A DNA stretch of 59,946 bases, the filler included. It is 3 parts of 3 records of this genome, joined end to end, with 100 filler letters (N's around TTAATTAATTAA, not from the genome) between each part and the next. Parts side by side here need not be neighbours in the genome. Positions count along the whole stretch, not along the records: positions 48,425 to 59,946 come from DRR723986_1325; 2 more parts are not named here. One strand, written 5' to 3'. This document shows positions 5,749 through 59,946 of this stretch, piece by piece. A program made the position numbers and the translations under genes. Numbering within the stretch: the first letter of the stretch is position 1; every line of letters starts with the position of its first letter. The notes below the pieces were generated by a model that saw only the letters and a list, made by a program, of their open reading frames with translations, ran no database searches and was not told where the DNA came from.

Positions 5749-7698
5749 TCATGTGCCTGTGACTGCGGGGACCCAAATCGTGAAAATTGCCCCTCCTGTT
5801 GGTTGATTTCGGGCTGAAATACGCCCTCCGGTTTGCTGGATCAGAGTTTGACTTATGGAGAGCCCTAACCCAGTGCCTTCGCCCAGTTTGGTGGTATGAA
5901 AGGGGTCGAATACCCGTTTCATATGCTCTGCATCTATGCCGGGTCCCGTATCAGAAACAGACAGTTCCACGCCATCACGCTCATTCCTAGGCGATGGTTT
6001 GACCCTGATGTCCAGCTGACCGTTCCCCTCCATGGCTTGAATGGCATTGACCATCAGATTGACAAGGACCTGCTGCATCTCCCCAGTATCTATCGCAACA
6101 TTTGGTGCCGCATCAAATTGAGTGGAAATTTGCACGTTCTGTTGGGGATGCACGTGGGTGATTAGGCTTTTGCAGTCGTCGATCAACATTTCCAGCGATG
6201 TGCCTTCGCTGGAGGCCGAAAATTCAGTTGGGCGGGCAAATTGCAATAGCTTTCCAACGATCCCGTCAATGCGCTGTACCTGCTTATCGATCAGGGTCAA
6301 TTCGGTTTCCACGCCGGCGGCGTCCGGTCCCAGGGTCTGGCGCACGACGTCGACATTGCCCTGAATGACCGCAACTGGATTGTTGATTTCATGGGCAACC
6401 CCTGCAGTAATTTCCCCGATCGAGGCGAGCTTTTCAGAGAGCACCAATTGCTGGAATGTCTCTTCCAGCTTTTCATTGGCATCGCGAAGCTCTGAGGTGC
6501 GCCGATCAACGCGATCATTCAGCTCTTCTGCCCAACTGCGTAGAGCCTGATCCCGTTCTTGGACCTGATCAAGTAATGTATCTAGATGGGTTGCGACTTG
6601 GCTGATTTCATCCTTGGATCCGACGCTGCCGTTGCGCGCTGACAGATCCCCGTTCTCCACACGGCTCATGGTTTTGGTCATACGTTCTAGCGGCGAAAAA
6701 ATCCCGCGGGCCATCCTAAGGAAAAGCGGAATAGACAAGGCAAGTACGATGACCATGGCGGCGAGCATGGTTAGGTAAGCAGATTTTTTTGCGTTGGCAA
6801 ATGGCGCCTCTAAGAAGCCAACATACAGCATCCCAACTCGGTTTCCGAAACTATCAATGAGCGGCAGATAGCCCGAAATGTACCAATCGTTCACGACAAA
6901 GGCGCGGTCCAGCCAGGTTCGGCCCTGATCCAAAACGGCGGCTCGGACTTCGGCAGAAACGCGGGTTCCCAACGCGCGCACGTCTTCAAACAGGCGCACG
7001 TTGGTCGAAACACGAACGTCTTCGAGAAACAAGGTTGCGGTGCCCTGCCTTTCCCCGCCCGTCGCCGCATTGAGGTACACCAGCGCGTTGATGGTATCGA
7101 TGAAATCAAGATTCCTGTTCAGCAAGATCCCCCCGATCAGGACACCTTGATGCCCTAGCAGGTCAACGGGGGCCGCGGTATGGACCACCATGCCGCGATC
7201 CTCGACCACACGATCGGTGGGCACTGCGGCTTCGGTGTCGATCAGATCCACCCGCGCACGTTTAGCCAAGTCAGGGAAGTTGGCTATGGTATCGGCCGGG
7301 AAGATGTCAATTTGCGACGACAGCTCGCCCCCAAGCGCGGCCTGAACCACTGGCCAACGTTGGGCTTTGCCTGTCTGTGTCGCGGGAAGATAATATAGAA
7401 AGTCGAGCGCCTGCTGAACGCGTTGCTGTTCTAGGTATGCGGCTCTCGTCTCCGCTGGCCCGGTCAAGGCAAATTGGAAATGGCGGGAATCTGCAATGGC
7501 AGCGATACCTGCCCCTGTCCCGGCCAAAATGCGGCCCAGATATTGTTCGGCAATGCGTAAATCACTGTCGACTTTGGCAATCAAGAGCTCGTCGTAATCG
7601 GATGTCCAGCGGGTCATTGCCAGCAACATCAACAAGGGCAGTAAAACCACAAGAGGCGCCAGTGCGAGCACCAACAGTTTCAGGCGTACTGAATTCAA
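5749..7698 (-). CDS. Membrane sensor histidine kinase (Cache-HAMP-HisKA-HATPase), probable partner of the 1729-3075 regulator
   Basis: TTG start after GAGGGGG; two TM segments; AGVAHEINNP H-box; NLMVNAIQA; DTGPGI; GTGLGLSI. Confidence 0.85.
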   Translation of the reverse strand: MNSVRLKLLVLALAPLVVLLPLLMLLAMTRWTSDYDELLIAKVDSDLRIAEQYLGRILAGTGAGIAAIADSRHFQFALTGPAETRAAYLEQQRVQQALDFLYYLPATQTGKAQRWPVVQAALGGELSSQIDIFPADTIANFPDLAKRARVDLIDTEAAVPTDRVVEDRGMVVHTAAPVDLLGHQGVLIGGILLNRNLDFIDTINALVYLNAATGGERQGTATLFLEDVRVSTNVRLFEDVRALGTRVSAEVRAAVLDQGRTWLDRAFVVNDWYISGYLPLIDSFGNRVGMLYVGFLEAPFANAKKSAYLTMLAAMVIVLALSIPLFLRMARGIFSPLERMTKTMSRVENGDLSARNGSVGSKDEISQVATHLDTLLDQVQERDQALRSWAEELNDRVDRRTSELRDANEKLEETFQQLVLSEKLASIGEITAGVAHEINNPVAVIQGNVDVVRQTLGPDAAGVETELTLIDKQVQRIDGIVGKLLQFARPTEFSASSEGTSLEMLIDDCKSLITHVHPQQNVQISTQFDAAPNVAIDTGEMQQVLVNLMVNAIQAMEGNGQLDIRVKPSPRNERDGVELSVSDTGPGIDAEHMKRVFDPFHTTKLGEGTGLGLSISQTLIQQTGGRISARNQPTGGAIFTIWVPAVTGT

Positions 7699-29500: not shown

Positions 29501-29600
29501 NNNNNNNNNNNNNNNNNNNNNNNNNNNNNNNNNNNNNNNNNNNNTTAATTAATTAANNNNNNNNNNNNNNNNNNNNNNNNNNNNNNNNNNNNNNNNNNNN
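29501..29600. other. Assembly gap with artificial six-frame stop linker
   Basis: N-run containing TTAATTAATTAA. Confidence 0.97.
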
Positions 29601-48324: not shown

Positions 48325-48424
48325 NNNNNNNNNNNNNNNNNNNNNNNNNNNNNNNNNNNNNNNNNNNNTTAATTAATTAANNNNNNNNNNNNNNNNNNNN
48401 NNNNNNNNNNNNNNNNNNNNNNNN
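48325..48424. other. Assembly gap with artificial linker
   Basis: N-run containing TTAATTAATTAA. Confidence 0.97.
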
Positions 48425-48440
48425 CTGGCGGAGAGGAAGG
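48425..48440 (+). repeat. att core, displaced copy
   Basis: CTGGCGGAGAGGAAGG, identical to 59931-59946; followed by non-tRNA sequence. Confidence 0.9.
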
Positions 48441-48559
48441 CCGCCGCACCCGTGTCCGCACGTTTCCGCCGCCGACCAAATATCCTGTGGAAACATAAGG
48501 CTTAGGTGGACAATCCTTCCACTTCTCACCGTGACAAACCGCACACAAACACCGATAAT

Positions 48560-48581
48560 GGGTGGGTAGCCGGATGGGTAG
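48560..48581 (+). promoter_or_regulatory. Integrase arm-type site pair
   Basis: GGGTGGGTAG and GGATGGGTAG at a 12-bp period; same motif at the other end. Confidence 0.65.
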
Positions 48582-48607: not shown

Positions 48608-49810
48608 ATGGCGCGGACACTGAACCGACTGACGGCCAACCAGATCAAGGCCGCCAAGGGAAAGCAGATGCTGCCGGATGGTGGAGGGCTCTACCTGCAA
48701 GTTACTGGAACTGACGCGCGATCCTGGCTGTTTCGATACCGATGGCAGGGCAAGCGTCCCGAAATCGGCCTTGGCCCCTACCCTGCCATTACACTTGCCG
48801 AGGCCAGGCGCCGGGCTGACGTTGCAAGGTCGGCCCTCGCTGATATGCCGCCACGAGATCCGAAGGCGGTGCTGAAGGGCGAAGGTGATAAACCTATTCC
48901 CACATTCGGCGAGTATGCGAATGAGTGGATGGACGCAAATCTTGGCGATTACACGAACGCCAAGCACCGCCAACAATGGCGCAACACATTGGATGCTTAT
49001 GGCAAGCCTCTGCGGGACAAGCCGATAAACGCCATCGAGACCGCCCATATTCTCGAAATTCTGAAACCCATCTGGAATAAAAAACGGGAAACCGCGACGC
49101 GCCTCAGGGGCCGTATAGAGCGCATTCTGGACGCGGCAAGTTCCGAAGGCTTCCGGACAGGTGACAACCCTGCTCGCTGGCGCGGCCACCTGAAGAACCT
49201 GCTACCGAACCAGAAGAAGCCGGTGAAACATCATGAGGCCCTGCCCTTTGCAGACGTGCCAGCCTTCATGAAACGCCTGCAGGAACGCGAAGCTCTCAGT
49301 GCCCGAGCGCTGGAGTTCCTGATCCTGACATGCGTGCGCTCTTCCGAAGGACGCGGAGCCAAGTGGGCCGAAATCGACCTTGATGCCCGCCTGTGGGTGA
49401 TCCCGCCCGAACGAATGAAGGAACCGAGGGAGCATCGCGTGCCCCTCAGTGACGCCGCCGCCGCAATCCTGGAATCCCTGTCCGATACGAAGACCGGCAA
49501 CTACGTCTTCCCGAATATGAGCGGCAAGGGCTGCATTTCCGAAACGTCACTTCGAAAGTTGATGGACCGCATAGGCACCACCGGTCCGACCATTCACGGC
49601 TTCCGGTCCACGTTCAAAGACTGGGCGACCGAGACGACGAACTTTTCCTGGGACCTTTCCGAACAGGCGCTGGCGCACATTGTCGGGGATCAGACGGAAC
49701 GGGCTTACCGAAGGGGCGATGCGCTAGAGAAGCGCCGTGCGCTGATGCAGGCTTGGGCAGATTATTGTGCAGGCAATGCCACTGGCAAGGTGGTGCGGTT
49801 ACATGGATAG
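48608..49810 (+). CDS. int: P4-like tyrosine integrase with arm-binding domain
   Basis: DGGGLYL..W.FRY..GLGPYP.ITLAEAR; catalytic R (CVRSSE), K, HGFRS, LAH, AYRR. Confidence 0.95.
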   Translation: MARTLNRLTANQIKAAKGKQMLPDGGGLYLQVTGTDARSWLFRYRWQGKRPEIGLGPYPAITLAEARRRADVARSALADMPPRDPKAVLKGEGDKPIPTFGEYANEWMDANLGDYTNAKHRQQWRNTLDAYGKPLRDKPINAIETAHILEILKPIWNKKRETATRLRGRIERILDAASSEGFRTGDNPARWRGHLKNLLPNQKKPVKHHEALPFADVPAFMKRLQEREALSARALEFLILTCVRSSEGRGAKWAEIDLDARLWVIPPERMKEPREHRVPLSDAAAAILESLSDTKTGNYVFPNMSGKGCISETSLRKLMDRIGTTGPTIHGFRSTFKDWATETTNFSWDLSEQALAHIVGDQTERAYRRGDALEKRRALMQAWADYCAGNATGKVVRLHG

Positions 49811-50975: not shown

Positions 50976-51170
50976 ATGACCCGCAAAATATACAAGAACC
51001 GCACACGAATGCAACGCCAGCTCAGCCTGTTTCACTGGGCGGCGATGCAACCTCAAACACCCCACCTTGCAGCCGTCCGCTACGTACAGGGCTTTGGCGT
51101 ACGTTCACCGTCCCTTGCGCTGCTCATAGCCGAGCATGCAGGGCTGCACGTGGGGGCTGATCATGACTAA
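50976..51170 (+). CDS. Small hypothetical protein
   Basis: GAGG RBS; MTRKIY..QLSLFHW; overlaps the next gene. Confidence 0.55.
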   Translation: MTRKIYKNRTRMQRQLSLFHWAAMQPQTPHLAAVRYVQGFGVRSPSLALLIAEHAGLHVGADHD

Positions 51171-51534
51171 GCAACCTGAGTCCGCGCTCCAGAAGGCCGT
51201 GGTGGAATACCTTCGCCTTGCCCTTCCGCCGCACGAGGCCGTCTTTTGGCACACACCGAACGGCGGCTACCGCGCCCCGCGTACTGCCGCCCGCCTCAAA
51301 GCTGAAGGTGTCGTCCCAGGTGTTGCGGACATTATCATCCTCTGGGCAGGCCGCTGTATCGCCATTGAACTGAAGGCGAAAGGCGGTAGCCAGTCAGCAG
51401 CACAGAAGGCGTGGGCGGACCAATTCACCACCGCAGGCGGCGCTTATGCCGTGTGCCGCTCTGTCGAGGCCGTGGAGCGCTTCCTTGATGCGGCGGGCAT
51501 TCCTTTACGGGCCAGTGTGGGAGGCGCGTCATGA
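51163..51534 (+). CDS. VRR-NUC domain nuclease
   Basis: ESALQ, HTPNGG, GVVPGVADI..IELK..Q (PD-(D/E)xK). Confidence 0.85.
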   Translation: MTKQPESALQKAVVEYLRLALPPHEAVFWHTPNGGYRAPRTAARLKAEGVVPGVADIIILWAGRCIAIELKAKGGSQSAAQKAWADQFTTAGGAYAVCRSVEAVERFLDAAGIPLRASVGGAS

Positions 51535-51767
51535 GCAAATACCCTCCTGGATATTTCGGGCTCCGCGAATGGCTTGGGCCGCCTATCGGGCTGTTGTTTG
51601 AACTTCGCCAGGATCCGGCTTTTCCGAACCGGCTACGGGCTTCCCTGAAAGCCATCAGCCTGCAGTTGGTCGGGCTTGTTGATGACGATGAGCTTGGGCT
51701 CATCGATACGTCACCAGAAGAACGCTTGCGCTCTGCCCAACAATGGAGGGAGCGCAAAGATGATTGA
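51531..51767 (+). CDS. Small hypothetical protein
   Basis: GGAGG RBS; ATGA coupling to VRR-NUC. Confidence 0.55.
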   Translation: MSKYPPGYFGLREWLGPPIGLLFELRQDPAFPNRLRASLKAISLQLVGLVDDDELGLIDTSPEERLRSAQQWRERKDD

Positions 51768-53226
51768 TGCTTACAGGCTATCTGCCGCAGCTAACCTCGA
51801 ACGCGATTACGGCGGCACGCAAATCCGCAATGGATCGGATGCTGACAGTAAACACCAATGGCCGGATCCAGAGCCAATCGACACCGATGAAGGAACCCCT
51901 GCCACGTTTCCACTGGATGCGCTCCCTGCGATGATGAAGCGGGCTGCGCAAGACATAGCCAACGGCACGAAATGCCCACCGGCGCTGGCTGCCGCGTCAG
52001 TCCTGTCTGTCGCTTCCTTCTCGGTACAGAACCATTTCGATGTGGAGTTTGCCCAGCGTCAGAGACGCCCTTTGTCCCTATGTATCTTGACGGTTGCGGC
52101 ATCAGGTGAACGTAAGTCCACGGTGGATCGGTATGCGGCAAGAGGTGTCTACGAATACAGGGTACAGCTGGCTCTCGAACATGCAGCCCGGGAAAAGGAC
52201 ATTGCCGACGCCAAAAAGGCAAAGGCGGATCACCTCCCTGACCCGTTGCCAGACCCCAATATCGTCATTGGCAATATGACCTTGCAGGGCATCTTCCGGG
52301 CTTTTGCAGAGGGGCAATCAAGCCTTGCACTCTTTTCCGATGAGGGCGGCGAGTTCCTTGGCGGACATTCGATGAAAGCAGAAAACCGCCTCGGTTCCCT
52401 GGCGGGGCTTTCAAAGTTCTGGGATGGCGGGCTGCAGGCTTACAAGCTGAGAGGCACCAAGGACAAATCCGAGACACTGACGGCCGATGATTGCCGCCTT
52501 GCTGTCCACTTGCAGGCCCAGCCCGTTGCCTTGCAGCCTTTCCTTGCTGACCCGATGGCAAAGGGACAGGGCCTCCTCGCACGCTGCCTGATCCACAAAC
52601 CGGCTTCCACGATTGGCACGCGGATCATGACGCTGGAAGAGTGGCAGGCTGATGGTATGACCGTCGAAGTGCAGTCCTTTGCCATGCGCGTTAAGACCTT
52701 GCTTAGTCGGCCCGTGAGCCGGGATGATGGCGCAGTCCAGCGTGACCTTCTGCGCCTTACCCTGGAAGCCATGCAAGCATTGCTGGACTACACGAACGAG
52801 GTTGAGCGATCCCTTGCCCTTGCAGGCGACCTGGAAGGTATGAGCGACCTTGTAAACAAGCTGTCCGAACAGGCCGCTCGCATTGCAGGAACATTTGCCG
52901 CCTTTGACAACCAGACCGAAGTGTCAGGCCGCACAATGGAAGACGCTATTCGCATCGCCCGCTATTTCCTTTCCGAAACTATACGGCTTGCGCGGCTGGT
53001 TCCGCAGGAGGCAGGCACCAAGGACGCCATCGCCATCGCCCGGTGGCTGCATCAGCGCGGCGGTCGCGTGAGCAACACCGATCTCAACAACAGCTTGCCC
53101 AATCACCTCCGTCGTAAGAAAGCACGCGCGAAGCCGATGGCGTTGCTTCAGGAAGCGGGATGGATCCGTCAGTCCGGCAAGTACTGGGAGCTGAACCCGA
53201 CCAGTGCCGAGCGGGGCTGGGTATAG
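51760..53226 (+). CDS. DUF3987/YfjI-family replication protein (P-loop helicase-like with C-terminal wHTH)
   Basis: FPLDALP, AASGERKS Walker A, FSDEGG, FWDG, QP, GLLARCL, QAARIAG. Confidence 0.85.
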   Translation: MIDAYRLSAAANLERDYGGTQIRNGSDADSKHQWPDPEPIDTDEGTPATFPLDALPAMMKRAAQDIANGTKCPPALAAASVLSVASFSVQNHFDVEFAQRQRRPLSLCILTVAASGERKSTVDRYAARGVYEYRVQLALEHAAREKDIADAKKAKADHLPDPLPDPNIVIGNMTLQGIFRAFAEGQSSLALFSDEGGEFLGGHSMKAENRLGSLAGLSKFWDGGLQAYKLRGTKDKSETLTADDCRLAVHLQAQPVALQPFLADPMAKGQGLLARCLIHKPASTIGTRIMTLEEWQADGMTVEVQSFAMRVKTLLSRPVSRDDGAVQRDLLRLTLEAMQALLDYTNEVERSLALAGDLEGMSDLVNKLSEQAARIAGTFAAFDNQTEVSGRTMEDAIRIARYFLSETIRLARLVPQEAGTKDAIAIARWLHQRGGRVSNTDLNNSLPNHLRRKKARAKPMALLQEAGWIRQSGKYWELNPTSAERGWV

Positions 53227-53242
53227 GATCGGACAGGCGTGG

Positions 53243-53483
53243 GCTTATCCGTACGCTGCTTATTCTGCTTATTTAGCGCATTGTTGGCGGGATCTGGAAT
53301 GAATATTGGAGATTTGGAGAAGCGGGCCCGTTGCTTAAGCCTGCTTATACCGGCTTATTTTCAGCGCCGCCCCGGAAAAATAAGCAGCAATAAGCAGGCA
53401 TAAGCAAATCGGCTGCTTATTGCGATCTGTAGTGTCTATTCAGCGTTTGAGCGCAGGCGCAGCAAATAAGCAGAATAAGCAGC
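53243..53483. repeat. Iteron-like array, putative replication origin
   Basis: 11 copies of GCTTAT/ATAAGC (consensus CTGCTTATT) in both orientations; perfect 20-bp inverted repeat 53255-53274/53464-53483. Confidence 0.75.
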
Positions 53484-53935
53484 AAGCTGAGCTGGTAGCG
53501 GTCCGGTCAGGAGGTCAGTCGCAATCAGGAAAGCGTACAGCTGGACACCGTAGTGAAGAGCGTCGTGGACACGATCATACGGAGCAAGGTTGCCACGGGC
53601 CCGGCAATGAACATAGCTGTTCCGATGCTAAACGCCTTGATGCTGCCGCGCCAGTACTCCCTATTCGCTGCAACGCAATCCTCATGGATCTTGTCAGCTA
53701 CAACTGGCTTGAAGTCGTCGTAACCGGTTGTCAGGGGTGTGATCGGAATGCGTCCTGTCTCACCGCCAGCCAGATCCAGCAACATACTGTAAATTTTATA
53801 TTTTATATAAGGGTCTGGTTGGTAACCCCGCCTGAGTTTGGTGCCTGTTGCGAACAATCACGAAAACTGGCGAATTGCACACCTAACATCAGCGTGGTTG
53901 AATGATTCGCAATCTTGTGTTGCGGGGGGGGTGGA

Positions 53936-55270
53936 ATGTTTGAGATCAACAATCTCACGAATCCGGTCGTGCTCGGTCAAGCAATTGGTGCGTTGGCGAT
54001 TTTGGCAGCGCTATCTGCCGGCCTTGCTGGAGCGTTCAAACAGAAGCTACCCAGGTTGGCACACTCGATAAGCTTTGTTCTTGTTGGGGCCGCTTCAACC
54101 GTGTTGGGCGCATTTGGATTTTCTGATGGTGGCTCTCCGGCTTGGCTCGTCGCGGGTCTTCAGTATGGTCTTCCCTGTGCTGTAGCGGCGATAGCAGCCC
54201 TTCTCTTGGGGGTTATCTCAAAGAATGCCGAATTTTTGTGGGCATACGGCGTTCTTGCGATATCCACTGTTGTTGGTGGGGCCGGAAGCAATCTGGCGAT
54301 TTACTACGCGGACGATGAACGTATCTTCGAAGACCCCTTGATGAAAGGATTTGCCGCGATTGAAGACCATTACCCGCTCGCTTGGGCAGAGCTGAAACAG
54401 GATCTGAGAGCTGCGGACTTGAGCGTAGGCAAGAGTGCGGCGCCTATCGTTCAAAGCTTCTACGCGAAGCACCAGCCTCAATTTTTTAGGATGGCTAGTG
54501 ATGAGGCTGTAGCCAGCCTTCAGAAGTCCGTCACGCGCAAACTCGAATATCTGGCTAATTCGAATCCTGGAGCCTGTGTGTCCTTTGTCTCCGGTAAAGT
54601 GCCCAATGAGATCTCATCTATACTGCCCTACAACATCAAACTCGAAGAAGCAGAATTGATTGAAAATCTGATCCAGTCATCAGGTGGTTCCAGCTCTGGT
54701 GTGGCGGGACAGGAAGAAGCCGAAGAATTGTTCGTTTCAGCAATTCTCACGCTAGCAGATCGAGAGCCTAATCTATTCTACGCTTATGTGGGAGAAAATG
54801 TGAACGGCACACCCAGCGATAAAGAGACCTGCGAATCTTGGATTGCGATAAACAGGATTATCGAAAGCCGTCCGGTAGATGAGTATGCGAGGTTTGTTCG
54901 AAGTGATTTGTGGCTCGTTTCTGAGAGCTCAATGTCAGACTCCGCTGGCGAAGATTTGGCTCTTGCTGCTTTGTACGCGGATGCCGCGATAACTCGCCGT
55001 GAATTACCGATCCAGATAGATCAGAGTACCACTCTGGTGGATGTGAGTTTTGATGGGGAAGCATACCATTATCGGTATGAACTTTCTGGACTTTCCGGCT
55101 CAGCTGGAGACTTCAGGAAATGGTTTGAGAGCCAGAGCGCCCCCAATATCTGTATTGGAGAGGATACAGCGCCGCTTATCGAGTTCGGTGTTTCGCTCAT
55201 ATACGAGTATGAATTAAACGGCGCTACTGTTTCTATACCTGTGGATCAGGCGCTCTGCCAAAAGCTGTAG
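53936..55270 (+). CDS. Cargo: multi-TM protein with soluble C-terminal domains
   Basis: Four N-terminal TM helices; C-terminal LPIQIDQSTTL..YRY..C..YEY resembles the AspS/PA3611-like fold. Confidence 0.7.
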   Translation: MFEINNLTNPVVLGQAIGALAILAALSAGLAGAFKQKLPRLAHSISFVLVGAASTVLGAFGFSDGGSPAWLVAGLQYGLPCAVAAIAALLLGVISKNAEFLWAYGVLAISTVVGGAGSNLAIYYADDERIFEDPLMKGFAAIEDHYPLAWAELKQDLRAADLSVGKSAAPIVQSFYAKHQPQFFRMASDEAVASLQKSVTRKLEYLANSNPGACVSFVSGKVPNEISSILPYNIKLEEAELIENLIQSSGGSSSGVAGQEEAEELFVSAILTLADREPNLFYAYVGENVNGTPSDKETCESWIAINRIIESRPVDEYARFVRSDLWLVSESSMSDSAGEDLALAALYADAAITRRELPIQIDQSTTLVDVSFDGEAYHYRYELSGLSGSAGDFRKWFESQSAPNICIGEDTAPLIEFGVSLIYEYELNGATVSIPVDQALCQKL

Positions 55271-55277
55271 TAAGGGT

Positions 55278-55841
55278 ATGATGGGAAAACTGCTTTGGAG
55301 CCCAATTCGTCCCGGTGAGAACTGGGCTCAGACACTGGTGCGGGTGGCCGGAAACCTGCTTCGTTGGATTATTGGCCTTCCGATAGTAGTTGGTTTGCTC
55401 ATCTGGGGAGGGGTGGCGGGTTACGGCTGGTGGAGTGACAGGCCTCAACGAATTACCGAACTTGAAGGCATCGTAATTGGAATGACTTCGACGGACGTCA
55501 CGCTGCTGAAGGGAGTGCCCAAATCGAACGGCCCCGAGGAAGGAAATGACGGTTCCTGGACAGAGGGGATGTTTTTTGGCGATTTGTTGGTGCTCCTCAG
55601 TGGGCTGTCCCAAGACAAAATGACAGTTTACAGAGTGTGTCACACCAATCCGGGATACTATGATAAGGTCTCGGGCATTACCGGGTCAGACAGCGAGAAG
55701 TTTGTCATCGCCCACCTCGGTGAGCCAGATGAAGTGGTGATTGATGATGATAAGCTGGGCAAGGCTTCGTACTTCGAACGCTACAACCTGATGGTTCGCT
55801 TCGCTAAGGCTCAGGTGGATGCAATTTGTGTGGGAACCTAG
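55278..55841 (+). CDS. Cargo: single-TM hypothetical protein
   Basis: N-terminal TM; GMTSTDV..KG.P and HLGEPD repeats. Confidence 0.65.
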   Translation: MMGKLLWSPIRPGENWAQTLVRVAGNLLRWIIGLPIVVGLLIWGGVAGYGWWSDRPQRITELEGIVIGMTSTDVTLLKGVPKSNGPEEGNDGSWTEGMFFGDLLVLLSGLSQDKMTVYRVCHTNPGYYDKVSGITGSDSEKFVIAHLGEPDEVVIDDDKLGKASYFERYNLMVRFAKAQVDAICVGT

Positions 55842-55856
55842 CTGGGCGGCCGCCAC

Positions 55857-56084
55857 CTAGTCTGCTTCCCACCAGCGCTCTGGTTCGTCTAGGCCAGGCC
55901 GGGTGCCTTCCAGTTCATCAAGTTCGGCATTGATGATTTCAGCCAGCGAGCGGTACTGCGCGACCTCATCTCCATGAGCCATGTCCCCGCCCTTCAATTT
56001 GTCGAAGATAGCGCGCGCTGGAACGCTGCGGAGCGCTCTTATGATGTTGTCCAGTCGAGCATAGCGGATGCGGTCAAAGCACAT
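55857..56084 (-). CDS. Cargo: small hypothetical protein
   Basis: 75-aa ORF converging on the upstream gene; no motif. Confidence 0.4.
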   Translation of the reverse strand: MCFDRIRYARLDNIIRALRSVPARAIFDKLKGGDMAHGDEVAQYRSLAEIINAELDELEGTRPGLDEPERWWEAD

Positions 56085-56421
56085 ATGATCGTGCTTAGTT
56101 CCTGGGCACCGCCCAAGAAAGGCGGTTCGCCTGAATTAGTTGGGGAAAGAGATCTGTTCCCGGCGTCTGTTTTGAGCCAAACCAGACATTCATTTGCGAC
56201 CGCGGAAGCGGCGGGATATGGCCCTTTTTTAGACTTTCCTATGCAGCTGTATTCGTCGGCGTTTTTACACAGTGGCGCGGGATCAAGGGGGGCCAGGTCA
56301 GTGGGAATGATTACGATTGGATGGCGTAATGAACGTGAAATTCTAATCCCGTCCGCTGATCGCTGTTGCTTCACCCCGCTTTTGCAGCTTCACTCTTCAG
56401 GACATTAAACGGGGGGTACAA

Positions 56422-57201
56422 ATGCCAAAGGGCGAAGGAAAGCGTCTCGGATTCGTTACTACATTTGCCGTCACGCTGGTTTTCATTCTATGGATTTTAC
56501 TTGTGGCCGCGATTGCTTTCGGCATCCAAAGCGGCACTCTTCAATTATTGTGGACAAATATTGAGGATGGCCAAGCGCAAATTCTCTCCTCAACAATTGC
56601 TGCATTGGGCCTCGTGACTTCGGCAGTTTTAGTGCCGTTTGTGTTTAAGGATCGCATTCGCGATCTGGACAGCGCTGTCGGCGAAATGCGCGAAACCATT
56701 GAAAACTTCGAAAGTGATGCCAGTCAGAAAATAGAGAAGCTTTCGGCTCTACTGAATGAGAGGATGGAAGAGCTCGAAAGGCGCGGCAGTGAAGATGTCG
56801 ATCGATTGGGGGATGTCCTGGAAGAGATTAGGTCTGCAGTCATCTTGTCGGTCAGTGATGGGCAGATTTCTGATCCGAAGCATGCAAAGGTCTTCGTCCA
56901 ACACCTCTATAACAACGCGGTCTCTGCTCTGAAGAGACGTGTGCGTGAGAAACCTTATCTCCGAGAAATCACAAAGGACCAAATCGCCAATCTTCGCACG
57001 ATGTCGAAGCAATATCTGGACAAGCTGCTGGAGACACAAATCATCACGCCCGCGGAACGTACGATTGTGGATCGAGTAAAGGAATTTGCCTATAGACGTT
57101 CGGACTTTGTCATGTCTGACATCACTGCGATCAACAAAACGCGCAGCGACTTCGATAATGCTTTTGGCGAAAGCTCTGTTTCGGATGTAGACGCAGTCTA
57201 A
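56422..57201 (+). CDS. Cargo: two-TM plus coiled-coil protein
   Basis: Two hydrophobic helices followed by a heptad-rich segment. Confidence 0.7.
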   Translation: MPKGEGKRLGFVTTFAVTLVFILWILLVAAIAFGIQSGTLQLLWTNIEDGQAQILSSTIAALGLVTSAVLVPFVFKDRIRDLDSAVGEMRETIENFESDASQKIEKLSALLNERMEELERRGSEDVDRLGDVLEEIRSAVILSVSDGQISDPKHAKVFVQHLYNNAVSALKRRVREKPYLREITKDQIANLRTMSKQYLDKLLETQIITPAERTIVDRVKEFAYRRSDFVMSDITAINKTRSDFDNAFGESSVSDVDAV

Positions 57202-57321
57202 CGCCCGACAAAGGTCCGCTTTCGGCGATTTTCGGAGCCCGGCCATAAGGCTTTCATTGTCCCAGGCTTTGTTCGATCCAACGCGCCTTTTTAAGTAGTA
57301 TTTGAAATTAAGGAGTGACGA

Positions 57322-57693
57322 ATGAAAAGGAAATATTTGCTGATTTTTTCGGTGTTCATGGCGGCTTGCACTACACCTGTGGGTCATACAAACCGTCCCA
57401 TGATGAATTATGATCGCGATACTGAATATAATATTACCGATTCAGAAGATGGTTTTAGCGTTACGGTTTTCTATTCTCGATACCAATTCATTCCTGAAGG
57501 TTCCACCGCAGCAACAGCCTGCAAACAGCAGCTTACCTCGATAGCGTATGAGCACGCGGATGGCGTCGGCAGAAAAATAGAGCCGATAAATGAGCAGCGG
57601 ATCCGCATCTCCATGGGACGGAACGGGCTTACTGGGGTGACGTCTTGTCAGGCGTATGGTGAAGCAAAATGGGCTAGTTCCCCAAGCGAATAG
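57322..57693 (+). CDS. Cargo: predicted lipoprotein
   Basis: AAGGAG RBS; MKRKYLLIFSVFMAA-C lipobox. Confidence 0.75.
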   Translation: MKRKYLLIFSVFMAACTTPVGHTNRPMMNYDRDTEYNITDSEDGFSVTVFYSRYQFIPEGSTAATACKQQLTSIAYEHADGVGRKIEPINEQRIRISMGRNGLTGVTSCQAYGEAKWASSPSE

Positions 57694-57697
57694 TCTC

Positions 57698-58135
57698 ATG
57701 AATATGACGCTCAAGCATCTCTGTTTAATTCTGATGATGTTTAGTTCTTGCTCGTTCGCAGCAGCAGATGGCATTTTGTGCAATGCTGACAAAGCGATGG
57801 CACTGGTTCGACAAAACAACTCAAAAGAGTGGGATTCTATCGAACCGGAGTCGGGTACTTTTTTTCTGACCGTTGAACTCGACTCCGCCAAGGGCTTCTC
57901 TGTCGGAGCGTTAGGTGACCCAGTACCATATTTGTCCGGCGACGACTGCCAAATGTTAGAGTCGGATAAATCAACAGCGATAGTCTGTGACAACATTATG
58001 AGTTCGTTCAGGCTAGATGTGGAGACAGCACAGTTTGTGTTCGCACAGCATTCTGGGCTCTGGAGATCAGCTGAAAATGGCCAGCTTGTTACTGTTGTTG
58101 GTCGGTGCACAACGTATAGAGGCCACAACAATTAA
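57698..58135 (+). CDS. Cargo: predicted exported protein
   Basis: Signal-peptide-like N-terminus; four Cys in the mature region. Confidence 0.6.
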   Translation: MNMTLKHLCLILMMFSSCSFAAADGILCNADKAMALVRQNNSKEWDSIEPESGTFFLTVELDSAKGFSVGALGDPVPYLSGDDCQMLESDKSTAIVCDNIMSSFRLDVETAQFVFAQHSGLWRSAENGQLVTVVGRCTTYRGHNN

Positions 58136-58331: not shown

Positions 58332-58766
58332 ATGGCAGGCGCTGACAACCGTAAAAACGGGCGCAATACGGATGGCACCTTCACCAAGGGCAACTCCGGA
58401 AAGCCACGCGGAGCACGCCACAAGGCGACCCAGGCAGCCCTTGCATTGATCGACGGCGAAGGCGAGGCCCTGATCCGCAAAGCGATCGACATGGCGCTGG
58501 AAGGTGACAGCGTTGCGCTCCGTCTTTGCCTGGAACGCCTGGCCCCTCCCCGCAAAGATGCGCCGGTTCGTTTCGCATTGCCCGTCATGGCAGGTGCTGA
58601 GAGCGCCGCATCCGCTATGGGCGCTATCCTTAGTGGCGTCGCCAATGGTGACCTTACACCCTCCGAGGCCAGAGCACTTGCGGGCTTGGTTGAAGGATAT
58701 CGCAAGGCGCTGGAAACAACGGAACTGGAAGCCCGTCTCAGGGCACTGGAGGAGCGGCAAGCATGA
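58332..58766 (+). CDS. DUF5681-like protein (putative small terminase-like)
   Basis: GTFTKGNSGKPRGARHK; KAIDMALEGD..ALRLCLER; ends ELEARLRALEER. Confidence 0.7.
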   Translation: MAGADNRKNGRNTDGTFTKGNSGKPRGARHKATQAALALIDGEGEALIRKAIDMALEGDSVALRLCLERLAPPRKDAPVRFALPVMAGAESAASAMGAILSGVANGDLTPSEARALAGLVEGYRKALETTELEARLRALEERQA

Positions 58767-58954
58767 ACTTGAAAGGACAGATAGTCCGCCTGGAGCGCAA
58801 ACATTGTCCTGATGGTGAGTTTGCGCATTTGTCAGATGCTGAACTGGTCACCCGTATCCAACATCTCGCAACGATACTGAACCAGTGCGGAGACCTTCCT
58901 TCGGAAATTGCAGCCCAGCTTCAGACGACCGGACTATGGGAAGCATCTCCGTGA
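58763..58954 (+). CDS. Mini-protein 1 of coupled array
   Basis: ATGA overlap; MNLKGQIVRLER. Confidence 0.7.
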   Translation: MNLKGQIVRLERKHCPDGEFAHLSDAELVTRIQHLATILNQCGDLPSEIAAQLQTTGLWEASP

Positions 58955-59178
58955 ACAGCATTGAACGCCGACTGAATGCAATTGAGAAGGTTTCGATCCA
59001 GCGCGGAAACGATGCTACAAGGATGAGTCAGTTCAGGGAACGCCTCGCCCGCGCCAAGGAGCGTTCGGGCCTTGCACAGCGAAGGTCAATCTGGGAGGAC
59101 GATCCACCACCGCCTGGGCTGAACCTTGCGGAGCTTCTGGATCTTGCGCGACGCCGGCATCGGGAGTGGCAAGAATGA
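58951..59178 (+). CDS. Mini-protein 2 of coupled array
   Basis: GTGA overlap; MNSIERRLNAIEK. Confidence 0.7.
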   Translation: MNSIERRLNAIEKVSIQRGNDATRMSQFRERLARAKERSGLAQRRSIWEDDPPPPGLNLAELLDLARRRHREWQE

Positions 59179-59423
59179 ACAGCATGGAAAGGCGCATGAA
59201 AGCGCTTGAAAAAAAAGCTGGGCCAAGTTGCGACGAGATGGACGTAACCATCGTTCGATTTGTTGCACCACTGCCTGACCTCACTGGCCCAGACCTAGAT
59301 ACACCCGCCAGCGGCTGGGCGATTATCCGCTCCGGCCCGAATGCTGGCATGACGCTGTATCCACATGAAGGAGAAACATGGGCGTCCTTTGAACAACGTG
59401 TCGATGAGGCGAAGGTCGCATGA
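59175..59423 (+). CDS. Mini-protein 3 of coupled array
   Basis: ATGA overlap; MNSMERRMKALEK. Confidence 0.7.
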   Translation: MNSMERRMKALEKKAGPSCDEMDVTIVRFVAPLPDLTGPDLDTPASGWAIIRSGPNAGMTLYPHEGETWASFEQRVDEAKVA

Positions 59424-59614
59424 CTATCAAGCACCGCTTAACCCGATTGGAGAAAGAGAACTCGCCCGTCTACCACTGCACCGAGGACATCCCGACGCCT
59501 GCGCTGGAGGCGATGGTCCGGAAGGCTTACCGGGAAGGAAACTACACGCCGGAGGAGGCTGCGCTGTATCGCAAGCTTGAAGATAGCGGCTTTGACCTTG
59601 GGGCGGCCCAGTGA
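59420..59614 (+). CDS. Mini-protein 4 of coupled array
   Basis: ATGA overlap; MTIKHRLTRLEK. Confidence 0.7.
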   Translation: MTIKHRLTRLEKENSPVYHCTEDIPTPALEAMVRKAYREGNYTPEEAALYRKLEDSGFDLGAAQ

Positions 59615-59820
59615 ACCTGAAGCCACGCATCGCCCGTCTTGAACGGAACGCGCCCGCGGTTCGGGCCGACGTGGATGCCCATATCGATGGCGTGGTAGCC
59701 GCAAGCCTGAAAGCCGCGTTCGAGCTATGGCCGGAAGAGATGGCGGAAGGCCTTAGTCCAGGGGAGCGCGCTATCCTTGCCCGACTGGAGCCTGACCTGC
59801 TGAGCCGGATTTGTCCGTAG
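59611..59820 (+). CDS. Mini-protein 5 of coupled array
   Basis: GTGA overlap; MNLKPRIARLER. Confidence 0.7.
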   Translation: MNLKPRIARLERNAPAVRADVDAHIDGVVAASLKAAFELWPEEMAEGLSPGERAILARLEPDLLSRICP

Positions 59821-59855
59821 CTGACCGCCCGAAATTGGGTGAGACTGGAGCATGT

Positions 59856-59877
59856 GGATGGGTATATGGATGGGTAG
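59856..59877 (+). promoter_or_regulatory. Integrase arm-type site pair
   Basis: GGATGGGTAT and GGATGGGTAG at a 12-bp period. Confidence 0.65.
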
Positions 59878-59930: not shown

Positions 59931-59946
59931 CTGGCGGAGAGGAAGG
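59931..59946 (-). tRNA. att core matching the 3' end of a tRNA-Ser (body presumably beyond the window)
   Basis: Reverse complement CCTTCCTCTCCGCCA: acceptor strand CCTCTCC, discriminator G, CCA; only the last 15 nt are visible. Confidence 0.6.

Follow-up and report, generated by a model that had tools for sequence, protein, structure and literature searches.

SaPIs carry their own small terminase (TerS), TerS-S, at the island end opposite the integrase, and their small Ppi protein interferes with the helper terminase. To our knowledge, TerS-S and Ppi belong to a different protein family and to hosts of a different phylum from the locus described here, and have neither its common tag nor its array. 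In the Gram-negative PICIs, the small satellite protein Rpp binds the phage small terminase and alters the packaged DNA (PMC6739421). According to PMC9611059, the TerS fold has an HTH at the N-terminus, a core formed by a helical hairpin, and a C-terminal moiety that is flexible; the C-terminal regions of the lambda and P22 TerS bind the large terminase (TerL), and in P22 the binding site for TerS has been mapped to the first 23-58 residues of TerL. The same source pairs a TerS C-terminal segment with the first residues of TerL in lambda gpNu1-gpA and between P22 gp3 140-162 and gp2 1-58. The T4 internal proteins are diverse small proteins with a common short N-terminal sequence, which targets them to the scaffolding core inside the prohead of the same phage (PMC3012670). 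PICMIs, minimalist marine satellites of Vibrionaceae that are defined by AlpA and Fis, are small integrative elements with few genes; these include an integrase and a DUF3987-type primase, and genes for capsid remodelling are absent. The paper describing them uses DUF3987 as a primase marker and notes ATGA-coupled small genes, and its main text does not contain the word 'terminase' (PMC10803314).

The window analysed here, the whole stretch of 59,946 nucleotides, ends with contig DRR723986_1325 (48425-59946, 11.5 kb), a small integrative element of an alphaproteobacterium and most likely a phage satellite. We assigned satellite status because an integrase, a VRR-NUC nuclease and a DUF3987 protein are present, and because capsid, portal and large terminase had no match in the element in Pfam, PHROGs or NCBIfam. 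The tyrosine integrase (48608..49810, on the plus strand like all genes of the element given here) has Arm-DNA-bind_3, Phage_int_M and Phage_integrase domains, the VRR-NUC nuclease (51136..51534) was recognised by a family match, and the DUF3987 protein (51676..53226, E 1.7e-68) is taken as the element's replication gene, of the primase/helicase type. They are followed by a lower-GC cargo of six ORFs (53420..58135) without a confident family or defence match, for which the matches were one below-cut-off NCBIfam match and one weak PHROG match for 56422-57201. The gene content is that of a satellite, small, with an integrase and its own replication gene and with an incomplete virion and packaging-motor set, and this layout recurred in nine of 11 annotated related loci; L003 and L005 among these 11 had no integrase or replication gene. 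Like PICMIs the element is small and combines an integrase with a DUF3987-type gene, whereas AlpA and Fis were not found in it and its host belongs to the Alphaproteobacteria. A 16-nt direct repeat, CTGGCGGAGAGGAAGG, which is probably the att core, stands at both ends of the contig (unstranded): the left copy (48425..48440) forms the first bases after the N/TTAATTAATTAA linker, and the right copy (59931..59946) forms the final bases of the contig and of the window. The left copy was also observed to resemble the complement of a tRNA 3' end.

Downstream of the cargo lies a gene for a DUF5681 protein of 144 aa (58332..58766), which matches PF18932 over residues 15-73 (E 9.1e-10, 39.4 bits against a gathering threshold of 27.5) and has a disordered, basic arm at the N-terminus, followed by two helices, a helical hairpin and an acidic helix at the C-terminus. 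In the AlphaFold2 model (pLDDT 81), helices were predicted at residues 31-56 and 60-70 and the hairpin at 91-105/110-143, an order that is compatible with the HTH, hairpin core and C-terminal moiety of the TerS fold. No solved TerS was retrieved with this model: Foldseek against the PDB gave nothing at E <= 0.001, and a wide VIA search gave generic helical hairpins alone (Z <= 6.9). The best E value of the profile from the DUF5681 alignment A2 against PDB sequences was 0.84, and the ESM Atlas gave no usable match for DUF5681.

Five mini-proteins are encoded directly behind this gene, which the first-pass annotation had described as coupled by five consecutive stop/start overlaps and as sharing an R-h-x-x-h-E motif with the DUF5681 C-terminus. 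Upon re-reading, the junctions were ATGA, GTGA, ATGA, ATGA and GTGA. The N-termini were QIVRLE, RLNAIE, RMKALE, RLTRLE and RIARLE and the C-terminal motif of DUF5681 was RLRALE, as that annotation had given them; the latter motif (58734..58751) lies inside the acidic stretch ELEARLRALEER. The sharing of the motif held in part: the strict form (Arg at g, hydrophobic residues at a and d, Glu at e, in a helix) is present in four of the five mini-proteins and at the DUF5681 C-terminus, but mini1 has Q where R is needed. In order, the genes encode mini1 (58763..58954, 63 aa, tag MNLKGQIVRLE, of the 'LSDxEL' subfamily, cluster 5), mini2 (58951..59178, 75 aa, GTG start, tag MNSIERRLNAIE), mini3 (59175..59423, 82 aa, tag MNSMERRMKALE, of cluster 0, the commonest subfamily with 48 members), mini4 (59420..59614, 64 aa, tag MTIKHRLTRLE, cluster 9) and mini5 (59611..59820, 69 aa, GTG start, tag MNLKPRIARLE). 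The remainders of the proteins had been called unrelated, and the tag-stripped minis 1, 3 and 4 indeed fell into three separate BLAST clusters, and none of the 14 clusters listed contained mini2 or mini5. None of the five gave a match at or above the curated threshold in Pfam, PHROGs, NCBIfam or PADLOC. In the predicted model of mini3 the tag is helical (residues 3-15), and a linker of lower confidence connects it to a small alpha/beta domain of three strands and a C-terminal helix; the best hits of its fold searches were Z 3.9 in VIA and E 0.61 in BFVD.

Comparative analysis of related loci, taken as the best 80 of 253 genome loci, showed that the array is a conserved module in which a constant tag is joined to a variable domain. 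In these alphaproteobacterial genomes, one to five adjacent tagged mini-ORFs were located at 76 of 81 DUF5681 genes, as the earlier reading would have them recur beside DUF5681 homologs. The best 80 of 253 loci and the window together contained 152 tagged ORFs beside DUF5681 (131 downstream and 21 immediately upstream), of which 138 have the strict motif, and the proteins, 54-119 aa long, formed 66 unrelated clusters once the tag was stripped. Four-nucleotide overlaps were found at the junctions of 72 of 92 chain members. The matrix for scoring tags derives from 92 ORFs of these very loci, and counts that use it are to that extent circular, whereas the regex, whole-genome and phage checks do not depend on it. 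Among loci outside the matrix building, eight of ten had tagged ORFs, among them one on a Methylobacterium plasmid and one on a virome contig of 8.66 kb, and in five whole genomes (~21 Mb) all eight matches to the mini3 family were downstream of a DUF5681 gene and no more than 5.7 kb from it. The literature, with subscription journals mostly uncovered, yielded no description of the arrangement, and the first-pass annotation had known of none.

The C-terminal helix of DUF5681 is conserved together with the tag. The strict C-terminal motif was present in 80 of the 81 DUF5681 genes of the best 80 of 253 loci and in 124 of the 150 top representatives of the family. In a library clustered at 50% identity, the family has 11,746 representatives at E <= 0.001, and phrog_9747 was matched by each of the 80 sequences in alignment A2. 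In 72 distinct DUF5681 helices, positions -7, -4 and -2 are acidic (97-99%) and the mean net charge is -3.1, whereas 135 distinct tags are basic at -2 (46%), -1 (47%) and +3 (73%), with a mean net charge of +1.9. The helices and the tags thus follow one heptad register with common hydrophobic positions and opposite charge. A complex prediction for DUF5681 and mini3, run without controls and without supplied alignments, scored 0.00, which counts neither for nor against binding. Tails of 30-118 aa past the motif in some DUF5681 representatives were considered as natural DUF5681-mini fusions and set aside as evidence, as hhalign of the mini3 family with one such representative aligned the motif and linker only, at a probability of 6.7%.

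To place the DUF5681 family, we turned to phages, where relatives of the protein of Salmonella phage STGO-35-1 were found in 302 phage records. In all nine phages examined, the DUF5681-family gene directly precedes, on the same strand, the next large gene, which was taken as TerL: the two overlap by 5-23 nt in six phages and are 129-140 nt apart in two, and in STGO-35-1 one small ORF stands between them. The next large gene is annotated as a terminase in eight of the nine. This is the position of a TerS gene in the phage relatives, the window's element itself being without TerL, and it bears out the term 'small-terminase-like' that the first-pass annotation had applied; the window DUF5681 protein is a probable small terminase. 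The strict motif was present at all ten phage C-termini read (the nine phages and Yersinia phage P400). The tag was also found on TerL: the TerL N-termini of four Vibrio phages scored 26.6, 21.9, 14.1 and 13.8 on the tag matrix, and only 53 of 51,567 background starts scored at least 14. In five enterobacterial phages, representing one TerL lineage, the TerL N-terminus is only tag-like (MARKRLSALAIEKLE) and scored -5 to -7, so that the clean TerL tag comes from the four Vibrio phages. By hhalign, the tag of the mini family was placed on TerL residues 3-17 with low probability (12-20%); a descent of the mini domains from TerL found no support, as the tag alone was aligned and the mini domains were not. 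Judged by its sequence, the tag is most likely a TerL N-terminal docking peptide, because DUF5681 occupies the TerS slot in phages, the TerS motif is acidic and the basic tag occurs on the Vibrio TerL. The earlier interpretation was that variable mini-domains dock by a common helix and might thereby redirect or block helper packaging, and it is supported in part: docking by a common helix agrees with the tag on four Vibrio TerL and with the opposite charges, but a generic coiled-coil plug gives way to probable TerL mimicry.

The reading that we prefer is a satellite TerS accompanied by mini-proteins that mimic the N-terminus of TerL, carry variable domains and dock on TerS, and we regard the case for it as evenly balanced. 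The element would have kept a DUF5681-type TerS as part of its last module, with five minis translationally coupled behind it and occupying the slot of TerL, each made of a putative TerL-type docking helix (~12 residues) that a short linker joins to a small variable domain. If lambda and P22 are a guide, the acidic C-terminal helix of TerS and the basic N-terminal helix of TerL may form the docking interface, and each mini would attach to a DUF5681 TerS oligomer, be it that of the element or that of the helper, at the C-terminal helix to which TerL would bind. A docked mini could then serve as an accessory subunit that can be exchanged, and as an adaptor or decoy it could bias the assembly of terminase in favour of the element; minis on the TerL-binding helix of the element's own TerS would be expected to hinder that TerS, not to help it. 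We infer physical binding, its stoichiometry and an effect on helper packaging, as we do satellite status. In contrast to lambda and P22, the predicted pair consists of acidic and basic R-h-x-x-h-E helices, DUF5681 has no sequence or fold match to the lambda, P22 or any solved TerS, and the TerL-type segment of the element is carried by the minis and not by TerL. The genes resemble that of Rpp in lying in a small integrase-bearing island, but Rpp is a single protein and is not known as a TerL mimic, whereas here one to five variable proteins with the N-terminal helix of TerL stand beside the element's own TerS.

More broadly, we tentatively suggest, with somewhat more doubt than conviction, that a large and undescribed alphaproteobacterial satellite family hijacks packaging by TerL mimicry, with exchangeable minis that plug onto the TerL-binding helices of the terminase ring as adaptors to foreign motors or decoys against that of the helper, and that the acidic and basic R-h-x-x-h-E helices are a TerS-TerL recognition code in hundreds of phages. 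If the tag is a TerL docking peptide, the DUF5681 family would gain a function, as small terminase, and a mapped partner-binding helix. The TerS-TerL contact, poorly defined in most phages, would here be readable from sequence and testable with peptides. Satellites would have a new route to exploit or interfere with helper packaging, in which the motor N-terminus is mimicked on small swappable proteins, and an explanation would be at hand for a gene array that is common in Alphaproteobacteria of sea and soil but lacks annotation. The short tag would also be a potential tool for loading proteins onto terminase complexes.

It is scarcely credible that the mini-ORFs are no genes at all, with the motif a chance or annotation artefact or arising from a repeat in the DNA, for instance a pac site. 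Homologues of minis 2 and 5 are, it is true, very few (one and two, respectively, at 76-87% identity, among 5.8 billion proteins), and a search of sequencing runs gave one run with 0.05 of the words, with no RNA run listed. The tagged array is nevertheless real and far beyond chance, as the strict motif occurs within the first 18 residues of only 85 of 13,658 background ORFs of related loci (0.6%) while the 152 tagged ORFs of the best 80 of 253 loci and the window come from several genera. GC content by codon position fits coding frames in the array (GC2 lowest, 0.41-0.48). At the invariant tag positions the full sets of six Arg codons and six Leu codons are in use, and the third positions of the conserved tag codons carry 0.1-0.45 bit (~1 bit at the Glu codon), so that synonymous codons vary freely at conserved residues; the tag is under protein-level selection, and a DNA-repeat or pac-site origin of the motif was ruled out by this codon analysis. 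Granted that the genes are real, the minis might simply form homo-oligomers (trimers), as diverging paralogues that kept an oligomerising helix without contact to DUF5681 or TerL. R-h-x-x-h-E is indeed an established trimerisation motif in the cited sources (PMC3653964, PMC6173795), and mini2 and mini3 have tags with 76% identity across 37 nt, which suggests duplication or gene conversion. The helix, however, covers only ~1.5 heptads and is followed by a Pro-, Gly- and Ala-rich linker, the motif switches topology solely within a trigger sequence according to PMC3653964, and the strict linkage to DUF5681, the opposite charges and the TerL tag would be left unexplained, which makes self-association decidedly unlikely.

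Two further readings were weighed. The N-terminal helix could target a capsid or virion, such that the variable minis, for example anti-defence factors, are injected from helper particles with the element DNA, and DUF5681 could be their carrier or be loaded in parallel. Mass spectrometry of STGO-35-1 virions detected DUF5681 (2 peptides, 19.4% coverage), and several related elements carry genes for DNA-accompanying or conduit proteins: L085 and L080 encode a tape measure, and L079, L078 and L025 encode homologues of a virion-module protein known from a podovirus. Sulfitobacter phage NYA-2014a and Brucella phage Pr, podoviruses with the virion protein common to some elements, had no DUF5681. 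The same virion preparation from STGO-35-1 also gave lysin, pointing to possible carry-over. Together with the finding of the tag at the N-terminus of TerL, a non-virion protein, and of a matching acidic helix on the protein in the TerS slot, and with no protease-site pattern or scaffold partner known, this leaves virion loading unlikely. The likeness to T4 internal proteins is confined to architecture, a conserved N-terminus and a diverse body; the tag here matches the TerL N-terminus and the TerS helix, and the element has no capsid genes. We consider it highly improbable that the elements are integrative mobilisable elements in which DUF5681 and the minis are relaxosome-type DNA-processing accessories with no part in packaging: TerL adjoins the DUF5681-family gene in all nine phages, relatives carry tail and virion genes, and neither a relaxase nor a coupling protein was found in the window's element. 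Such a role would fit the basic arm and HTH-like helices predicted for DUF5681, and no helper phage was identified; a profile search of five genomes (E <= 0.01) retrieved only element-type DUF5681 copies, one or two per genome. One relative, MT836812.1, does encode a Mob_Pre relaxase.

MT836812.1 was also the sole match of the element's DUF5681 subfamily in blastn and tblastn searches of 50,697 phage records. Against plasmids, blastn gave nothing and tblastn gave five records for this subfamily. A collection of viral contigs also contains relatives of the element, 6-9 kb in length, and one further relative is a virome record; this is no more than suggestive of packaging by a helper.

Re-reading of the sequence bore out the anatomy proposed in the first-pass annotation, in which a DUF5681 gene (58332-58766, plus strand; PF18932 in Pfam at E 9.1e-10, which exceeds the curated cut-off) is followed by small ORFs with overlapping stops and starts. 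The five plus-strand ORFs, mini1 to mini5, encode 63, 75, 82, 64 and 69 aa, and the successive overlaps from DUF5681 through mini5 are ATGA, GTGA, ATGA, ATGA and GTGA. The codon-position GC of the minis is consistent with coding frames. Their N-termini, termed tags here, read MNLKGQIVRLE, MNSIERRLNAIE, MNSMERRMKALE, MTIKHRLTRLE and MNLKPRIARLE, and the DUF5681 protein ends in ...ELEARLRALEERQA. The motif R-h-x-x-h-E, which had been assigned to all five minis, is strict in four of them, while mini1 has Q for R; as background, 85 of 13,658 ORFs (0.6%) in related loci carried the strict motif within their first 18 residues. The tag-coding starts of mini2 (58952-58988) and mini3 (59176-59212) are 76% identical over 37 nt and the remainders of the two genes are unrelated, which hints at duplication or gene conversion confined to the tag.

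The DUF5681 gene and the minis were located last on the 11.5-kb final contig (48425-59946), downstream of genes for a tyrosine integrase, a VRR-NUC nuclease and a DUF3987 protein. Contigs in the window are chained by N...TTAATTAATTAA...N linkers at 29545 (29545-29556) and 48369 (48325-48424), and the genes left of 48325, encoding a histidine kinase and a FliN-like protein, are therefore not neighbours of the element. Both contig ends carry an identical 16-nt repeat (48425-48440 and 59931-59946) that, judged by its sequence, resembles a complemented tRNA 3' end, and the contig is either the assembled circular (excised) form or one broken at att repeats. Just inside these ends, paired TGG(A/G)TGGGTAG-type repeats (48559-48581 and 59855-59877) may be arm-type binding sites of the integrase. 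A block of about 4.7 kb with lower GC (0.47-0.53; 53420-58135), between the replication gene and DUF5681, is inserted cargo; searches of Pfam, NCBIfam, PHROGs and PADLOC for families and defence genes matched none of its six ORFs with confidence, and those at 57322 and 57656 have signal-peptide or lipoprotein-like starts. No capsid, portal or large terminase (TerL) gene was found on this contig.

Comparative analyses showed that the module of DUF5681 and tagged ORFs is conserved. Searching one genome per species gave 253 relatives of the DUF5681 protein, and the best 80 of these represent 79 loci, all of which their record titles assign to Alphaproteobacteria, a few odd MAG labels excepted. 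Downstream of the DUF5681 stops of these best 80 relatives there were 92 strict-motif small ORFs, 72 with a 4-nt overlap with the previous stop, and the consensus derived from them was M-[TS]-L-[KR]-x-R-[LIV]-x-[KR]-L-E; in 89 of 92, Arg is residue 6-8. A position matrix trained on these 92 ORFs, the counts of which are thus partly circular for them, identified 152 tagged ORFs next to DUF5681, of which 131 lie downstream and 21 directly upstream; the motif is strict in 138 of the 152. At least one tagged ORF adjoined 76 of 81 DUF5681 genes, two of the five exceptions having just 44 nt of downstream sequence, and arrays contained 0-5 minis within 2.5 kb downstream. Because of this circularity, untrained loci and whole genomes were used as independent checks. 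Adjoining tagged ORFs were present in 8 of 10 loci outside the training, including arrays on a Methylobacterium plasmid (five tagged ORFs) and a virome contig (four). When five whole genomes (about 21 Mb) were searched with a mini3 family profile, all eight matches lay on the same strand within 5.7 kb downstream of DUF5681, seven of them within 1 kb. One Roseovarius genome (L047/G005) has two copies of the module, each with DUF5681 and two minis, about 590 kb apart.

The motif is a protein tag and not a DNA repeat, which was ruled out because synonymous codons vary where Arg, Leu and Glu are invariant. Arg and Leu are each encoded by all six of their codons, roughly as elsewhere in the genes, and third-position information at the invariant codons is 0.1-0.45 bit (about 1 bit at two-codon Glu). 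After removal of the first 14 residues, the 152 tagged proteins (54-119 aa, 5th-95th percentile) fell into 66 BLAST clusters, 50 of them singletons; the largest had 48 members, including mini3, another had 13 upstream-type members, and mini1 and mini4 were in small clusters. Among 5.8 billion proteins, mini2 had one homologue and mini5 two. The AlphaFold2 model of mini3 (pLDDT 82.7) predicts a helix at residues 3-15 that leads through a lower-confidence linker to three strands and a C-terminal helix, and fold searches with it gave no match.

Structure and sequence searches of DUF5681 against solved proteins gave nothing specific. Its model combines a disordered basic arm with two helices, a helical hairpin and a long C-terminal helix, and this predicted layout is compatible with the small-terminase (TerS) plan described in PMC9611059. 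The sole paper found to name DUF5681 concerns Salmonella phage STGO-35-1, and relatives of that phage's DUF5681 protein were found in 302 phage records. In nine of these records gene order was inspected: six phages show a 5-23 nt overlap between the DUF5681-family gene and the large gene that follows it, in SB28 and DS8 the following large gene begins 129-140 nt downstream, and in the STGO-35-1 record one 48-codon ORF separates DUF5681 from the large terminase (circular map, across the record origin). As this following gene carries a terminase annotation in eight of the nine, the family occupies the small-terminase slot, and gene position thereby upholds the earlier description of DUF5681 as small-terminase-like. 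The intervening ORFs of STGO-35-1 and SB28 (45-48 codons; L096/L095, MW477799.1 47348..11, and L100:440-577) are without the tag, and that of SB28 is membrane-like in look.

The tag was also found on TerL itself. TerL N-termini scored 26.6 in PVA1 (MASALSKRLSKLEES), 21.9 in phiV208 (MQASLAKRLDAIES), 14.1 in 1.061.O (MSSLLNRLKRVEP) and 13.8 in 1.276.O (MNLATLNKRLDRIQ) on the tag matrix, on which just 53 of 51,567 background starts reached at least 14; the looser N-terminus of five enterobacterial phages of one TerL lineage (MARKRLSALAIEKLE) scored below 0. The mini-family tag aligned to TerL residues 3-17 (hhalign). Strict R-h-x-x-h-E was likewise present in an acidic C-terminal helix in all ten phage DUF5681-family proteins read, and at the C-terminus in 80 of 81 element copies and 124 of 150 best representatives. 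This helix and the tag have one heptad register in common and differ in charge: acidic residues occupy -7, -4 and -2 in 97-99% of 72 distinct DUF5681 helices (mean net charge -3.1), and basic residues occupy -2, -1 and +3 in 46%, 47% and 73% of 135 distinct tags (mean net charge +1.9). According to PMC9611059, the first residues of TerL are bound by the C-terminal part of TerS in lambda and P22.

The simplest account is that the tag is a TerL-type docking helix, and we infer that it pairs with the acidic C-terminal helix of TerS, as the basic N-terminal helix of TerL would in terminases of this type. The elements would have retained TerS, with minis in the TerL slot instead, each combining the docking helix with a variable small domain; translational coupling suggests that the minis assemble with DUF5681. 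The main rival is that the tag loads the minis into virions, for which the T4 capsid targeting sequence is a precedent; ejection-type genes in some related elements favour it too, as does the reported detection of DUF5681 in STGO-35-1 virions by mass spectrometry. If the tag is a docking helix, the minis could serve as accessory subunits, connect non-cognate helper motors as adaptors, or act as decoys that engage the helper's TerS. Small terminases and terminase-binding proteins encoded by satellites are already known, for example Rpp (PMC6739421). In the literature searched, which did not extend to most subscription journals, we found no description of an array of TerL N-terminus mimics, a TerS role for DUF5681, or this alphaproteobacterial DUF5681/mini element family.

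Nine of 11 annotated related loci have the same gene order, namely integrase, a protein of about 220-300 aa with no assigned function, primase and/or helicase (Toprim_3 with DUF3987, Prim-Pol, or AAA_25), DUF5681 and minis; in L003 and L005 no integrase or replication gene was seen nearby. Of 58 loci scanned, 19 have an opposite-strand tRNA gene within 3 kb downstream, and 25 have one within 10 kb. Some arrays are followed by a tape measure gene (L085:10879-13377), by genes for tape measure, tail assembly chaperone and Neck1-type proteins (L080:2627-6038), or by homologues of a podovirus virion-module protein (L079:10933-12750, L078:12585-14180 and L025:12237-13724), so that the elements, though small, contribute tail or ejection parts as well. 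A viral-contig collection also contained relatives, on contigs of 6-9 kb. Taken together, the gene layout, the tail and virion genes and these contigs make the elements look like a family of phage satellites. The 450-500 aa virion-module protein is encoded, in Sulfitobacter phage NYA-2014a and in Brucella phage Pr, between the genes for a peptidoglycan-hydrolase virion protein and the tail fibre. RefSeq labels the proteins of about 500 aa, SUFP_018 (NC_027299.1, L090) and gp26 (NC_019447.1, L091), as 'major head protein', a label that phrog_21712 bears too; it is probably wrong, because of that location and because both phages have a separate major head protein of about 330 aa beside scaffold or structural genes. 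The 8.66-kb virome contig MT836812.1 (L080) mixes phage-type and plasmid-type functions, carrying DUF5681, four tagged minis, tail genes and a Mob_Pre-type relaxase (6523-7686, minus strand).
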